DNA of 32,000 nt, from positions 2,795,248 through 2,827,247 of the forward strand of contig NZ_CP069798.1 of assembly GCF_016894345.1 (NCBI RefSeq). The letters are read 5' to 3'. Source of the stretch: Paralysiella testudinis (GTDB lineage: Bacteria; Pseudomonadota; Gammaproteobacteria; Burkholderiales; Neisseriaceae). The notes under the pieces are model-generated. The model was not told the origin of the DNA, did no database searches, and saw only the letters and a list, made by a program, of their open reading frames with translations. A program made the translations under genes and the position numbers. Each line of letters starts with the position of its first letter. Position 1 is the first letter of the stretch. Below, one piece after another: positions 4,187 through 11,525 of the stretch.

Positions 4187-4196
4187 AAGATACTGT
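4187..4196. repeat. Core repeat AAGATACTGT (copy L), proposed prophage attachment junction next to wrbA
   Basis: Exact 10-mer shared with 11516-11525; variant AGGATACTGT at 5536-5545. Confidence 0.6.
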
Positions 4197-4522
4197 ATTG
4201 CAGCGTCAAGCTAAAAATCTGGTCAATATTTGCAAATCATTGTTTAAAAATGGAATATAGTTTTAGCAGGCGGGTGCAGGCGTTCCCCTGCGGGTCGGGC
4301 TTGCATGGCTGCGCCACTCAACCGCTACGCGTTTTCGCCGTTCCGGTGCTAATCCCTAACGCAAGACCTTGGGGCTTTGCCCCAAACCCCACACTCGCCG
4401 TGAGGCAGCTGGTGGGGCGATAAAACCACCCCACCAGCAGCCAGGAGCGTTTTTTGGGTGGGTTCTACGTCAAGGGGTATTCATAAAGGCTGCGCCTTTA
4501 CAAAGCTTCCCCTTGACTTCAT

Positions 4523-5494
4523 TTATACGGGTTCGGGATTCAGGCGTTTGGGGTCAAACGGTTGGCCGCTCTTGAGTACGGCATAACAGTAGGTGAGCAG
4601 TTTACGCATGAGGGCGCAGATGATTTGTTTGTTGTGTTTGCCATTATCACGCATGCGCTGGATAAAGGGCTTGAATTCGGGTAGGCGGAAGGCCACGACG
4701 GCGGGCATGTAAAGGGCGGTGCGGATGAATTTGTCACCCATCTTTGAAATCGCCAAGTAGCTGGTTTTCTTGGTGCCAGACTGTTTGATGATGGGGTTTA
4801 AACCGACAAACTTGGTCACTGCGCGGTTGCTGTTGAATTCTCTTTCGGCAAAAAGGGCGAGCAGGTGGGGTACGGTGGCGTCACCTACCGCCCTAACGGT
4901 CTTTAGTAAGTCGGCCTTTTGTTGCAGTGATTCATCAGCGGCAATGTGGGCTTGAATGGCGGCTTGAACTTCGGCTATTTGCTGGCGAAGGTTATCTATT
5001 GTTTTGTCGATGAAATCATGTATTGAAGGATGGGCAACCTGCAAACGGTTAAGCTGTGCGGTATGCATGTCTTTGTAATAGTCAAGCTGGCGCGTGAGGG
5101 CTTTGAGCTGCCGTTCTGATGGGCTGGGCGGGGTGTACAGGTCGGGCTTGATATCGGCACAAAAACGGGCAATGATTTTGGCATCTTGCTTGTCGGTCTT
5201 GACACACTGAAGTTTGGTGTTGGCGTATGATTTGATGGCAAAAGGGTTGACGACGGAAACAAGGTGGCCGTGGTCGTGCAGGTAGTCGGCGATGGCTTCG
5301 GAATAGGTTCCTGTGGCTTCGCAACAGGCGTGGACTTGGGGGGTGTATTTGGCTATCCACTCAGACAGCTTTTCAAAGCCTGTTGGATCGTTTTTGATAA
5401 CGCGGTGGAAATAACGGTCGTTCATTTTCAAACAGGCGTCAATTTTTGACTTTGAGACATCTAAACCAAGGTAAACAGCGGTGGTGGTGTTCAT
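4523..5494 (-). CDS. IS110-family DEDD (Piv-like) transposase/recombinase, presumed prophage integrase
   Basis: N-terminal RuvC-like DEDD layout (YLGLDVSKSKID, CCEATGTYSE, KTDKQDAKIIA). C-terminal Transposase_20-like region (FVGLNPIIKQSGTKK...SKMGDKFIRTALYMPA). SD GAGGGGG lies 6 nt before the ATG. Confidence 0.9.
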   Translation of the reverse strand: MNTTTAVYLGLDVSKSKIDACLKMNDRYFHRVIKNDPTGFEKLSEWIAKYTPQVHACCEATGTYSEAIADYLHDHGHLVSVVNPFAIKSYANTKLQCVKTDKQDAKIIARFCADIKPDLYTPPSPSERQLKALTRQLDYYKDMHTAQLNRLQVAHPSIHDFIDKTIDNLRQQIAEVQAAIQAHIAADESLQQKADLLKTVRAVGDATVPHLLALFAEREFNSNRAVTKFVGLNPIIKQSGTKKTSYLAISKMGDKFIRTALYMPAVVAFRLPEFKPFIQRMRDNGKHNKQIICALMRKLLTYCYAVLKSGQPFDPKRLNPEPV

Positions 5495-5535
5495 GTAAAA
5501 CCCCCTCTTATATTCAAGCTGGCTTGTGGCCGCCT

Positions 5536-5545
5536 AGGATACTGT
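5536..5545. repeat. Core repeat variant AGGATACTGT (copy M), 42 nt upstream of the recombinase ATG
   Basis: 5511-5549 is homologous to 11487-11529: 14/17 identities, then a 2-nt versus 6-nt indel, then CCGCCTA(G/A)GATACTGTTCA. Confidence 0.6.
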
Positions 5546-5637
5546 TCAGGTTTTAAAACGGGTGAGAACCCCGCCTGCCAATCTTTTGTTCAGGCTCGAA
5601 GCCTAGCTGCTGGGAACGGCTTGGGCGGGGGGACTGC

Positions 5638-5961
5638 TTAAACTACAGGTGCATTATCAGATACAGGTGCAGTATCAATCCATTCAATCAAAAATGCAAA
5701 CGTTGAAGAAATTAATTTAAGCTGCTCAACATCCAAAAAATGCCCTGATAAATTATTATCAATCAAGTTTTTCAACAAAAGCAACTGATTATAAGTCATA
5801 ACAGGCGCAGCAAGTGAATTGTGTACGTTATCAAAAGCAGCTGAAGAAAAAGGCACACAGGAAGATGAAACAGGATAACCGTTAATCGAACCGACAAATG
5901 CATTATCACCGACATGTAAAAATTGGTGATTATTCAAATCAACATCAATTGTCTTACTCAT
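5638..5961 (-). CDS. Hypothetical protein; AT-rich cargo (moron) gene downstream of zot
   Basis: ORF with GAGGA SD and the ATG at 5961. Visibly much lower GC than the rest of the prophage. No signal peptide or transmembrane segment, and no family I recognise. Confidence 0.6.
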   Translation of the reverse strand: MSKTIDVDLNNHQFLHVGDNAFVGSINGYPVSSSCVPFSSAAFDNVHNSLAAPVMTYNQLLLLKNLIDNNLSGHFLDVEQLKLISSTFAFLIEWIDTAPVSDNAPVV

Positions 5962-5971
5962 AAAAAAATCC

Positions 5972-9672: not shown

Positions 9673-9969
9673 TTATTCAACAATGGTGAAGTACAGGAAG
9701 TCTTTAAAGGCGCGGGGCATGATGCGCACGCGCAGGGGTTGGCCGGGCTTGAAGCCTTTAAATGCTTCGGGGTTCTTGGTTTTGATGTTGTAAATGTTGG
9801 TGTCTTGTTCGGTGCGGACGATGACGGCAACTTCGTAGTTGACTACGATTTTGCCTTCACGGTCTTTTTTCTCTTTGCGCACGATGCGGTCAAAGCTGGC
9901 TTCGATATAAAAACCTTGGGTGCTTTGGTTGCTGACTTGGGTGTTGGTGGTTTGGGTGTTGTCATTCAT
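9673..9969 (-). CDS. Probable ssDNA-binding protein (pV-like), assigned by size and position
   Basis: 98-aa soluble basic/acidic protein between Rep and the major coat gene. No recognisable motif. Confidence 0.5.
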   Translation of the reverse strand: MNDNTQTTNTQVSNQSTQGFYIEASFDRIVRKEKKDREGKIVVNYEVAVIVRTEQDTNIYNIKTKNPEAFKGFKPGQPLRVRIMPRAFKDFLYFTIVE

Positions 9970-9999
9970 GGCTTTGGTTCCTTGTGGTTTGGGTGGTGG

Positions 10000-10995
10000 T
10001 TAAATCGGCATGGCGGCGATGGTTTGGCGGTTGGTGTAGGCCCATTTGCTGCCGAGGCGTTGGGTCAATAGTTCGCTGTAGTTCTCTTGGGTCATAAATT
10101 GGTAGTCGGTTTGGCTGCGGTAGTAGCCGCCGATGATGTGGCGTTCAAACAGGTAGTTATCTACTTCGATAATCCAGTTCTTAAGCTTTTGACGCCAAAG
10201 CTTGCTGCCGGGGCTGGCAAACTGAAAATTGCTGGTGGCTATTTTCCATTTGCTTTGTTTGTCTTGGCTGGTCTGGCACAGGCGCACGCCTTTGTCGGCG
10301 CTGATGCGGCTGTCGATGTGTTTGCCGATGTACTTTGCTACGTAACGGGCTAGGCCTTTGCTGTTGGTCTTGACGGGCATGAGTTCGCTGCGGCCAAAGC
10401 CGTATTTGGGCATGGCGGTTCTTAGGTTTTTCCAATGGCGTTTGATTGCTTCATTAGCGGTTTTATAGTTGCGGGCGGCGATTTGGCGGAAGTTCAGGCC
10501 TCTGCGGATGTTGTCTTTGCAGACAACAAGCAGGTGGTAATGGATGCGGCCGCTTTTGGTTCTCTCTACTACGCGGATGTAGTGTTTGTAGTGGTGCTTG
10601 AGGAAGTTTGTGCGCAGGCTGTTAAAGCGGCGCTGGGCTTCGGACGGGCAGGTGACGTGGTCTGCGAAGGTCAGGGTCATAAAGCCGACGTGGTCTATGC
10701 CGAAGCGGTCAATCAGGGCTTTGGTGTTAAGCTCGAGGGCGTAGGCGCTTTTGCGGTGGGCGGTGGTGAACTCATTGAGTTCTGCTTCTTTGTCAGACTT
10801 GGCGCGAACTTCGGACGATGAAAAAACCGGGGCAACTTTGCCGCCTGCGGCGGCTTCGTTGGCTGCTGAAGCATCATCAATGCCGGGGCGGATTGAGATG
10901 TTTCTATTCAGACAAGGAAGCGACTTGCGGCCTGCGGCCTTCAGTCGTTCCGCTGCCGAATCGTTGCGCAACAGGGATTCTTTCAGGGCACTCAT
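10000..10995 (-). CDS. Rolling-circle replication initiator (HUH endonuclease, gene II / RstA analogue)
   Basis: Motifs MTLTFADHV, GRIHYHLLVV (HUH) and YVAKYIGK (catalytic Tyr) in the expected order. The start overlaps the upstream stop (TAATG). Confidence 0.85.
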   Translation of the reverse strand: MSALKESLLRNDSAAERLKAAGRKSLPCLNRNISIRPGIDDASAANEAAAGGKVAPVFSSSEVRAKSDKEAELNEFTTAHRKSAYALELNTKALIDRFGIDHVGFMTLTFADHVTCPSEAQRRFNSLRTNFLKHHYKHYIRVVERTKSGRIHYHLLVVCKDNIRRGLNFRQIAARNYKTANEAIKRHWKNLRTAMPKYGFGRSELMPVKTNSKGLARYVAKYIGKHIDSRISADKGVRLCQTSQDKQSKWKIATSNFQFASPGSKLWRQKLKNWIIEVDNYLFERHIIGGYYRSQTDYQFMTQENYSELLTQRLGSKWAYTNRQTIAAMPI

Positions 10996-11210
10996 TACAG
11001 GCCACCTGCTTGAATGTAGCGTTTGCCGAACAGGCAGGCACTTTCAAAACCGTGGTCAAGTTCACAGTCCTCGAAAATGATTAAGTAGGTGGGGAAAAAG
11101 CAGGAGGCGGGTTCTTCACGACCTTGGCAGACTGCAAGCCAGCCCTGAATCGGTTGGCCGTGGCTGTCGGTGCGGGTGTCCGGGTATACGGTGAACTTGG
11201 GTGATTGCAT
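10995..11210 (-). CDS. Hypothetical small phage protein
   Basis: ORF translationally coupled to rep. ATG at 11210 preceded by AGGGG. No motif recognised. Confidence 0.5.
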   Translation of the reverse strand: MQSPKFTVYPDTRTDSHGQPIQGWLAVCQGREEPASCFFPTYLIIFEDCELDHGFESACLFGKRYIQAGGL

Positions 11211-11252
11211 GAAAAGCCCCTGTGATTGATGAAGAGAATATCGGAACCTCAC

Positions 11253-11432
11253 TTACAAATATTCAAATTCATATTCGATGGGGGAAAGAACAAAGCGCTG
11301 GGCAGCTAAAGTTGCAGCCTCTTTTGTCGGGAAAAAAGACAAGCTAAGAACTTGAACAGAATCAACAACAAAAGTAAGCCAGTACTCATTAAGCGTGGGA
11401 GAGTAGGTGATTCTGAATTTATATTTTGACAT
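11253..11432 (-). CDS. Hypothetical 59-aa protein, first ORF of the prophage (below the ORF-track cutoff)
   Basis: My own translation is MSKYKFRITYSPTLNEYWLTFVVDSVQVLSLSFFPTKEAATLAAQRFVLSPIEYEFEYL. SD GAGGG lies 7 nt upstream and is embedded in the 15-bp inverted repeat at 11436-11470. Confidence 0.4.
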   Translation of the reverse strand: MSKYKFRITYSPTLNEYWLTFVVDSVQVLSLSFFPTKEAATLAAQRFVLSPIEYEFEYL

Positions 11433-11515
11433 GACAAAGCCCTCGTGATTGGTGGAATCACAAGGGCTTTATTAAGCTTACTAGCAGATTCAGGCTGGTT
11501 TGTCAAAAACCGCCT

Positions 11516-11525
11516 AAGATACTGT
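11516..11525. repeat. Core repeat AAGATACTGT (copy R), proposed prophage attachment junction on the yihY side
   Basis: Exact direct repeat of 4187-4196. Confidence 0.6.

Follow-up and report, generated by a model that had tools for sequence, protein, structure and literature searches.

A filamentous prophage that carries an IS110-family recombinase in place of a tyrosine integrase raises the question of how such a phage finds its site in the host chromosome. The prophage lies in a 32,000-nt stretch of the Paralysiella testudinis genome, here called the window (NZ_CP069798.1 of GCF_016894345.1, positions 2,795,248-2,827,247 of the forward strand). An initial annotation had described it as an apparently intact phage of Nf/MDA type in a non-Neisseria host with another dialect of the DNA uptake sequence (DUS), and the host is indeed P. 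testudinis, with the AG-simDUS dialect; the replication protein (Rep) and the recombinase are each 100% identical to P. testudinis proteins on a 2.9-Mb contig. Analysis of the locus makes it highly probable that the block is a 7.38-kb inovirus prophage whose integrase is a domesticated bridge recombinase of the IS621 type together with its bridge RNA. What is newly added is the putative bridge RNA, donor guides that correspond to the phage ends, and target guides that correspond to the host DUS dialect and its adjacent bases, as read in silico at 13 insertions.

The recombinase and its predicted bridge RNA

The recombinase is encoded by the last gene of the block and, as first annotated, stands in place of a tyrosine integrase; it is IS621-like, as in phage MDA. 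It matched the IS110 family RNA-guided transposase model NF033542 with 214 bits and the solved IS621 and ISCro4 proteins with E=3e-53 and E=6e-56, respectively, and NCBI already labels it an RNA-guided transposase. Residues D12, E59, D101, D104 and S239 align with the catalytic D11, E60, D102, D105 and S241 of IS621 (PMC11208158), which gives the DEDD and serine residues of such enzymes.

Guides were predicted by the rules of Durrant 2024 and searched for in the phage, and three of them fell within 140 nt upstream of the recombinase gene. A cargo open reading frame (ORF) had been read in this interval, which additionally contains the bridge RNA that the initial annotation overlooked. A covariance model built from eight relatives (R1) detects this RNA upstream of every recombinase in both clades of relatives, with E-values of 1e-7 to 8e-3 in the Neisseria clade. 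The segments in the window are:

4523-5494, minus strand: IS110-group bridge recombinase
5501-5637, minus strand: bridge RNA, directly upstream of the recombinase gene (R1, 146 bits)
5630-5624 paired with 5575-5569: outer stem of the target loop, with an inner stem-loop at 5605-5591
5612-5606: left target guide, CAGCAGC
5590-5583: right target guide, AACAAAAG
5545-5538: left donor guide, ACAGTATC
5535-5517: inner stem of the donor loop
5515-5507: right donor guide, GAATATAAG

The right target guide AACAAAAG and the host flank CTTTTGTT are reverse complements over 8 nt, the left donor guide ACAGTATC equals the left donor over 8 nt, the right donor guide GAATATAAG is the reverse complement of the right donor CTTATAT..TC over 7-9 nt, and the left target guide matches at 5 of 7 positions; the guides are arranged about a CT core. 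The RNA is predicted to fold into two stem-loops, the large internal loops of which hold the guide segments. In the R1 alignment 90.5% of cells are paired, against 71.9% in shuffles, and 20 of 22 pairs show compensatory changes; none of 500 shuffles reached this, and slid controls gave 34-48%. These four helices are consistent with a non-coding RNA upstream of the gene that has two internal-loop stem-loops.

RNAalifold, run on a plain MAFFT alignment with shifted columns, missed the outer stem of the target loop, and the covariance model recovered it. Rfam searches at gathering and E-value thresholds returned tRNAs and noise only, with no bridge RNA family matched, and scans of viral and metagenome contigs with a donor-loop pattern gave nothing useful, the single match (L079) being unrelated. 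The 336 structured nt downstream of the recombinase were considered as a guide RNA of the IS1111 style and rejected: most of this stretch (4528-4360) has 92% identity with relatives without the recombinase, and it is upstream of the gene that the real guides are found.

The ends of the prophage and the circular form

The left junction reads TTCAGGCAGC-CT-TATATATT (core 11573-11572) and the right junction ACAGTAT-CT-TTTGTT (core 4189-4188), and the true prophage is 4188-11571; the left boundary first given, 11525, falls about 48 bp short. A 10-bp repeat, ACAGTATCTT, had been assumed to be an att duplication and was rejected as such, since its copy at 11525-11516 is contiguous and conserved in the circular relative L075. 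Circular relatives read straight through the joint, and this copy is therefore internal to the phage. A search for direct repeats of 10 bp or more places the ends of such prophages wrongly, because what recurs is guide sequence and not a duplication. The features of the two ends, all given on the minus strand, are:

11574-11603: left half of the host attB, an inverted AG-simDUS pair (GCTGCCTGAA..TTCAGGCAGC) forming a terminator-like hairpin, with the left target AGGCAGC at 11580-11574
11572-11573: CT core of the left junction (attL), the complement of the AG that opens the 12-mer DUS
4188-11571: prophage body, equal to a circular genome of 7,384 bp; GC 0.52, against 0.55 in the rest of the window
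11564-11571: putative -10 half, TATATATT, of a junction promoter, equal to the right donor; the promoter would form only with the ends joined (principle from PMC11208160)
11547-11562: 5' stem-loop of the left end, GCCCCatcacaGGGGC
11477-11527: second stem-loop, resembling a donor loop and holding a perfect left donor guide, ACAGTATCT (R1 positions 93-136, E=0.009)
11433-11470: 15-bp hairpin followed by UUU, terminator-like, closing the left-end RNA
4204-4209: putative -35 half, TTGACG, of the junction promoter
4188-4196: left donor ACAGTAT with the CT core of the right junction (attR)
4182-4187: host right target TTTGTT, 24 nt upstream of the start codon of a wrbA-like gene

The left-end RNA, comprising the 5' stem-loop, the donor-loop-like stem-loop and the terminator-like hairpin, is structured (z = -5.3). 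Its second stem-loop contains the copy of the supposed direct repeat, has TTGACA in its loop, and is kept in the clade of the window (L075 3877-3938, L081 15-121 and L081-83, L011 8893-8955 and L011-13) and absent from the Neisseria clade.

Comparison with circular relatives locates the joint. L075, which is circular by a 30-nt terminal overlap and has the recombinase, aligns across the joint with the right end of the window prophage (to 4188) joined to its left end (from 11571), 137 of 187 positions being identical. Across ACAGTATCTTATATT, L075 reads TTGACC-17 nt-TATATT and then a second AACAGTATCTTAGGCG, and the junction is retained in L002 and L072, which are circularly permuted genomes without the recombinase. 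The reconstructed joint of the window prophage has TTGACG, 16-18 nt and TATATA/TATATT, and that of the circular relatives TTGAC[CT]-17-TATATT. The two halves of a putative sigma-70 promoter thus stand at the two ends and, once joined, would face the left-end RNA and the Rep operon.

The empty site can be reconstructed as well, and the phage appears to have entered between the DUS hairpin and its T-rich tail. Without the prophage the yihY-wrbA spacer would read ...TTCAGGCAGC-CT-TTTGTTAAAA, and precise loss would restore ...TTCAGGCAGCCTTTTGTTAAAATTAC; the phage circle would carry the joined ends ACAGTATCTTATATATT, its junction reading ...GCAATACAGTATCTTATATATTCGCCCC.

These ends bear on whether the recombinase serves the phage at all, or is a selfish insertion sequence (IS) that landed in a filamentous prophage which integrates otherwise, for example through host XerCD at a dif-like site as CTXphi does. 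Selfish and domesticated inovirus transposases were not separable by protein sequence alone (Roux 2019), and the close circular relatives L002 and L072 lack the recombinase, as a selfish IS would allow. However, the donor guides match the ends of the whole 7.4-kb element and not sequence adjacent to the gene, a conserved hairpin block lies between the gene and the right end, the target guides agree with host DNA flanking the prophage as a whole in 13/13 cases, and the position of the recombinase after the Zot gene is conserved in Neisseria, Vitreoscilla and saliva inoviruses. No dif-like sequence was found, in a weak test by pattern search. A selfish IS is accordingly hardly credible here. The guide RNA can separate domesticated from selfish inovirus transposases, since the donor guides show where the mobile unit ends, in this case at the phage ends.

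The recombinase-less circles L002 (5,503 bp) and L072 (5,302 bp) are the closest relatives by Rep (87% and 79% identity). They have neither bridge RNA nor cargo ORF, retain the donor site ACAGTATCTTATATT and the junction promoter, and might integrate in trans by means of a resident relative.

Target guides and DNA uptake sequences

The window has the host dialect AG-simDUS, AGGCTGCCTGAA, 22 times as the 12-mer and 29 times as the 10-mer, and the canonical Neisseria DUS not once. No 10-mer occurs between 3841 and 11571 (about 8.7 expected in 7,387 bp; Poisson P(0) = 1.7e-4), in agreement with the initial annotation, which had remarked on a region without DUS. That remark misses the main point, for on the evidence of the junctions and guides the phage integrates at a DUS and its guide RNA holds 5 nt of the dialect.

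Right guides were read from the R1 alignment and compared with the host flank at each locus. In 13/13 prophages the right guide is complementary to the host flank over at least 7 contiguous nt from the core; the sum of matches was 93, compared with 53 +/- 4.7 for permuted pairs, and 0 of 100,000 permutations reached it. Examples are:

L004: right guide GCAAAG, flank CTTTGC
L009: right guide AAGAAAG, flank CTTTCTT
L077: right guide CGGAAAG, flank CTTTCCG
L012: right guide AAACAAG, flank CTTGTTT
L080: right guide ATTTCAG, flank CTGAAAT

One phage was found at two different mucDUS sites (L088 and L091), with TTTTT after the core in both. Of the other 21 reverse-complement DUS 12-mers in the window, none is followed by TTTGT.

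Every left junction for which a host flank was available consists of a reverse-complement uptake repeat and then phage. In five DUS dialects the repeat ends in C followed by the CT core, and the insertions are all at the AG end of the repeat. The left guide agrees with 5-7 of the 7 core-adjacent bases in each of six DUS dialects or uptake-sequence-like repeats, and only 2 of 40,320 permutations (the identity and one trivial swap) reach the observed total:

AG-DUS: left guide GUACGGC, target AGACGGC, 5/7
mucDUS: left guide core bases ACGAC, target ACGAC, 6/7
eikDUS: left guide AGGUAGC, target AGGTAGC, 7/7
GCCACCTGAA dialect: left guide AGGUGGC, target AGGTGGC, 7/7
Vitreoscilla GCGGCCTGTAA (10-18 copies per 21 kb): left guide GCCG plus CU, target GCCG plus CT, 5/7
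AG-simDUS (window): left guide CAGCAGC, target AGGCAGC, 5/7

An apparent clash of 1 nt in register between the left guide of the window and the DUS was dismissed, as the eikDUS and GCCACCTGAA relatives match 7/7 in the same register.

Nearness to DUS might instead be a by-product, either of inverted DUS pairs being the commonest intergenic terminators or of the prophage having arrived by transformation with DUS flanks, so that the phage itself does not read the DUS. Such repeats are frequent here, at about 1.2 per kb, and a Neisseria iguanae locus with a hybrid simDUS/AG-DUS pair suggests imported flanking DNA. Against this, the crossover falls at the same nucleotide of the DUS every time (TTCAGNNNNC followed by CT in Neisseria-type hosts, and ..CAGGCCG followed by CT in the Vitreoscilla repeat), the left guide varies with the dialect (ACGGC, ACGAC, GCAGC, AGGTAGC, AGGTGGC and GCCG), and circular forms have no DUS at the junction. 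We therefore consider a by-product very improbable.

Several loci add detail on the flanks. The left flank of the N. iguanae locus (L046) is a hybrid inverted pair of AGGCTGCCTGAA (simDUS) and TTCAGACGGCCT (AG-DUS), which suggests that the prophage arrived with flanking DNA by a recombination ending inside the hairpin. Three prophages in the single genome of Vitreoscilla massiliensis SN6 (L011, L012 and L013) each lie beside an inverted pair of GCGGCCTGTAA(A), an 11-mer that is probably the uptake-sequence dialect of this species. The flank of L084 at 1-30, AGGCCACCTGAAggcTTCAGGTGGCCT, looks like a further DUS dialect (GCCACCTGAA), and its left guide AGGUGGC matches 7/7. L080 (1430-1700), in a simDUS host, has the closest relative of the recombinase (71% identity), with right guide AUUUCAG and right flank CTGAAAT; its left flank is off the contig, and the crossover may lie inside a palindromic DUS arrangement (..AGGCAGC-CT-GAA..). 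In L092 (Neisseria lactamica GCA_003492845.1), 3780-4030 holds tandem phage left ends, the inner one interrupting the 5' end of a Rep gene; the inner site fits the left guide and the outer right flank does not fit the right guide, as in a nested or rearranged HUH-Rep prophage. In the window itself, a single AG-eikDUS inverted pair, AGGCTACCTGAA, occurs at 28603-28643 beside tRNA-Glu and tRNA-Arg (28705-28874), the window being otherwise simDUS.

Gene content of the prophage

By its gene set (Rep, coat, TspB-like pIII, DUF2523, Zot and IS110 recombinase) the block is an inovirus prophage, and Pfam, PHROG and NCBIfam profiles matched Rep, coat, the TspB C-terminus, DUF2523, Zot and IS110. The minus strand holds eleven co-oriented ORFs between 11432 and 4523, of the sizes first stated and with equally tight junctions (ORFs overlapping in TAATG at 10995 and by 14 nt at 9049-9062, and separated by 1 nt at 7397 and by 3 nt at 7109-7111). 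The ORF list and the family search contained no secretin-like ORF among those of the element, in keeping with the reported absence of a pIV secretin gene. All genes other than the recombinase, with the hairpins and the neighbouring host genes, are:

11253-11432, minus strand: ORF of 59 aa, without homologues among the relatives; accessory, or no gene at all
10995-11252, minus strand: ORF of 85 aa (71 aa from an inner ATG), conserved partner upstream of Rep
10000-10995, minus strand: HUH rolling-circle Rep, 331 aa (PF23343, PF05840); H152/H154 and Y218/Y222 invariant
9673-9969, minus strand: 98-aa candidate single-stranded DNA-binding (pV-like) protein, predicted five-strand beta fold, no family match
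9370-9600, minus strand: probable major coat precursor, 76 aa; mature form about 45 aa with acidic N-terminus, hydrophobic core and 3 basic C-terminal residues
9049-9354, minus strand: minor coat candidate, 101 aa, counterpart of MDA ORF5
7398-9062, minus strand: pIII-like adsorption protein, 554 aa; C-terminus a TspB domain, N-terminal half variable
7112-7396, minus strand: DUF2523 membrane protein (pVI-like), by family match
5972-7108, minus strand: Zot/pI assembly ATPase, P-loop at residues 7-14
5638-5982, minus strand: AT-rich ORF of 114 aa (107 aa from ATG), no homologue in any relative or family library; moron or spacer
4367-4517, minus strand: three strong hairpins (z = -5.8), candidate packaging signal or complementary-strand origin
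3546-4163, minus strand: flanking FMN_red/WrbA-type gene, by family match
11737-12996, plus strand: flanking BrkB/YihY gene, by family match

Rep matched PF23343 with 48.5 bits (cut-off 27.8), as expected of a rolling-circle initiator, and matched PF23343/PF05840 and not PF02486. Zot matched PF05707 with E=1e-25 and phrog_197 with E=3e-73 over residues 1-356, which places it with the inovirus ATPases. In the pIII-like protein the matches are to the C-terminal domain only (PF05616, E=7e-11, residues 461-546; NF041109, E=1.5e-13), and an exact-sequence look-up of the protein found no record. The coat precursor has a clear pattern of signal peptide, hydrophobic core and basic C-terminus, and matched phrog_2374 with E=2e-8 and Phage_Coat_B with 19 bits, below the curated cut-off of 23.5; no match was obtained among solved structures, a set that ought to include the published capsid structure of MDA. 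The 98-aa protein has a confidently predicted five-strand beta core, and its top folds are OB-fold single-stranded DNA-binding proteins, among them the Ff gene V protein. In recombinase-less circular relatives the hairpin block lies directly 3' of Zot, whereas in the window the recombinase module sits between the Zot stop codon and this block, with the right end 330 nt beyond. The 59-aa and 114-aa ORFs are unique to the window phage and could be morons or non-coding spacers.

Remnants of IS elements lie elsewhere in the window, at 88-1122 (partial DDE_Tnp_1), 2617-3392 (an rve integrase as two overlapping ORFs) and 30656-31322 (a DUF4096 and partial DDE pair that may represent a programmed frameshift instead of damage). 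The claim that all four IS transposases are broken was checked in part: the rve gene at 2617-3392 is split, and the DUF4096/partial DDE pair at 30656-31138 could be frameshifted by design.

Weighing a functional phage against a relic

The phage might also be a fixed, silent and virion-less relic, its genes intact through recent insertion or host benefit. Both available assemblies carry the same prophage at one and the same locus, the records include no circular contig of exactly this phage, and the fit between the left guide and its site is imperfect. On the other hand, with 1 nt of difference in 17,685 the two assemblies are effectively one strain and uninformative on fixation; the eleven ORFs are full length compared with relatives and MDA; there is no damage to the catalytic residues, to either half of the donor or of the promoter, or to the helices of the bridge RNA; and relatives occur as circles in metagenomes. 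A relic is an unlikely explanation, though one to be reckoned with, and the first impression of an inovirus prophage without sign of decay is supported.

Some observations speak against a bridge RNA-guided inovirus as set out above, and they concern the RNA foremost. Its single-sequence fold is no more stable than shuffles (z = -0.91), and support for the structure therefore comes from covariation, which was counted on an alignment fitted to R1 itself. Guide registers were set by hand from the R1 alignment, handshake-guide positions gave no consistent pattern and were dropped, and the bridge RNA had no promoter in a consensus scan. In the window the left guide pairs with 5 of 7 DUS bases, and a U-G wobble is formed where its last base faces the core C. 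Among the proteins, the pV-like assignment of the 98-aa product (best Foldseek E=0.018) and the coat assignment (Phage_Coat_B, E=0.0013) are each weak alone. The sample for P. testudinis consists of two near-identical assemblies of one species.

A proposed cycle

By analogy with IS621, excision and insertion would be carried out by the recombinase with its RNA. The two CT cores would be joined and a circle released, in which the -35 TTGACG of the right end is united with the -10 TATATA/TATATT of the left end. Circularisation would thereby activate the Rep-facing promoter. The HUH Rep would then initiate rolling-circle replication, with the 98-aa OB-like protein coating the single strand and the hairpins at 4517-4367 serving as packaging signal or origin. 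Virion assembly would fall to Zot, DUF2523, the coat proteins and the TspB-like pIII, and the virions may leave, as for MDA, through the host secretin, which in the Nf/MDA group is PilQ. For integration, the donor loop (ACAGTATC / GAATATAAG) would hold the joined phage ends ACAGTAT-CT-TATAT, and the target loop the end of the reverse-complement DUS (GCAGC, read by left guide CAGCAGC), the CT core and TTTGTT (read by right guide AACAAAAG), so that the target for the window phage would be TTCAGGCAGCCTTTTGTTA. The DUS would serve as an abundant, dialect-specific intergenic landing pad, of which the right guide picks one copy of many.

A broader scheme is offered tentatively, as a proposal somewhat short of even prospects: filamentous phages of Neisseriaceae may use the host DUS as attachment site by way of a reprogrammable bridge RNA, with the left guide tuned to the dialect, the right guide selecting the copy and Rep turned on only after excision, and the targeting of dRS3 by MDA may be a reprogrammed variant. 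If so, the DUS dialect would limit lysogeny as well as transformation, the split promoter, with its two halves on opposite ends, would be a lysogeny switch without a repressor, and the pathogen-specific dRS3 targeting of MDA would be one variant of the scheme. The target loops of MDA and Nf1-4 are predicted in that case to read the dRS3 halves ATTCCCNC / GNGGGAAT, and integration of MDA/Nf at dRS3 is worth re-reading in bridge-RNA terms. Phage lysogeny would be linked to DNA uptake sequences in Neisseriaceae by a base-pairing rule that changes with dialect, and these phages would offer natural pairs of bridge RNA and recombinase with differing guides, the natural donor being a 7.4-kb circular replicon.

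A literature search for bridge or seek RNAs in connection with Neisseria filamentous phages, DUS or dRS3 found none; it missed most subscription journals, and an earlier description is possible. Roux 2019 left the domestication of inovirus transposases open, and the annotation of deposited inoviruses, among them saliva, lemur and Thermus phages, already includes IS110-type genes.

Relatives and comparison with known systems

The lineage as such is not new, as judged from genomes: syntenic prophages (Rep, 98-aa ORF, coat, ORF101, pIII, DUF2523, Zot, IS110) with the same type of Rep occur in many commensal Neisseria genomes, including N. flavescens, N. iguanae, N. uirgultaei, N. lactamica and other Neisseria, and three such prophages are present in Vitreoscilla massiliensis. 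The closest relatives of Rep (64-87% identity) are on metagenomic contigs of 5-7 kb. Among 50,697 deposited phage records, Rep had no relative save a Microviridae VP4-like protein with 29% identity, and the N. meningitidis MDA/Nf1 locus was absent from the relatives retrieved.

Assignment to the Nf/MDA type holds for the structural, assembly and integration modules, and fails for the replication protein and the site. Like MDA and Nf1 (Bille 2005, PMC2212043; Kawai 2005; Al Suwayyid 2020, PMC7058167), the window phage is about 8 kb and lacks a secretin gene, and it shares the gene order of an ORF of ssDNA-binding size, coat, an ORF of about 100 aa, a TspB-like ORF6 of about 550 aa, an ORF7 of about 95 aa, a Zot-like ORF8 and, last, an IS621-like transposase of 323 aa. 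Sizes in window and MDA are 98/104, 76/77, 101/102, 554/547, 94/95, 378/401 and 323/323 aa (Bille 2005, PMC2212043), the pIII-like protein has the C-terminal domain of the TspB family of ORF6, and the crossover is at CT in both. The best match of MDA ORF9 is the IS621 transposase (PMC2212043). MDA ORF1, however, is a 429-aa Rep_trans/RstA-type protein (pfam02486; PMC2212043), whereas the window Rep is a 331-aa HUH protein (PF23343/PF05840). MDA inserts in dRS3, ATTCCC-N8-GGGAAT (PMC11893778, PMC2212043), whereas dRS3 does not exceed chance in the window and a DUS forms the junction. The two also differ in host genus and DUS dialect; in this comparison the proteins were set against the published MDA ORF table, not the MDA sequence.

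The saliva inoviruses D_HF3_8 and D_HF35_23 (OR148982, OR148983) and the Dulem viruses are circular genomes of 7.5-9.7 kb with homologous coat, ORF101, pIII C-terminus, DUF2523, Zot (59% identity) and IS110 recombinase (39%), and the saliva inoviruses have a bridge RNA detectable by R1. Their replication module is Rep_trans (PF02486) with RstB, in contrast to the HUH Rep of the window, and the replication module is thus exchangeable in this group.

With IS621 and IS110 elements (Durrant 2024, PMC11208160; Hiraizumi 2024, PMC11208158; 2026, PMC13626964) the window phage shares a homologous recombinase with five catalytic residues, an RNA directly upstream of its gene, target and donor loops with guides in the same places, a CT core and, putatively, a split promoter. 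Unlike the compact IS of about 1.3-1.5 kb, such as the 1.3-kb IS621 element, its ends enclose 7,384 bp that include a complete phage; the bridge RNA lies about 6 kb from the left end and not directly behind the junction promoter; an extra donor-like loop is present at the left end; and pairing of the left guide ends at the core C (U-G or C), the core T being unpaired.

Cargo-bearing IS110 loci (bioRxiv 10.64898/2026.08.14.744561) resemble the window in that IS110 ends enclose kilobases of cargo, with boundaries set by matches between guides and flanks and half-matches tolerated. Their cargo is resistance-related and plasmid-like, whereas that of the window is, judged by its genes, a self-replicating and self-packaging virus; the words "filamentous", "Neisseria" and "inovirus" each have 0 occurrences in that report, and DUS is unmentioned. 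CTXphi, which uses XerCD at dif, offers a last parallel as a filamentous phage whose lysogeny needs no phage-borne tyrosine integrase and whose exit is by a host secretin, as is presumably true of the window phage. It differs in that the window phage has its own recombinase, with no dif-like site recognised in the weak test given above, and the site would be specified by an RNA.

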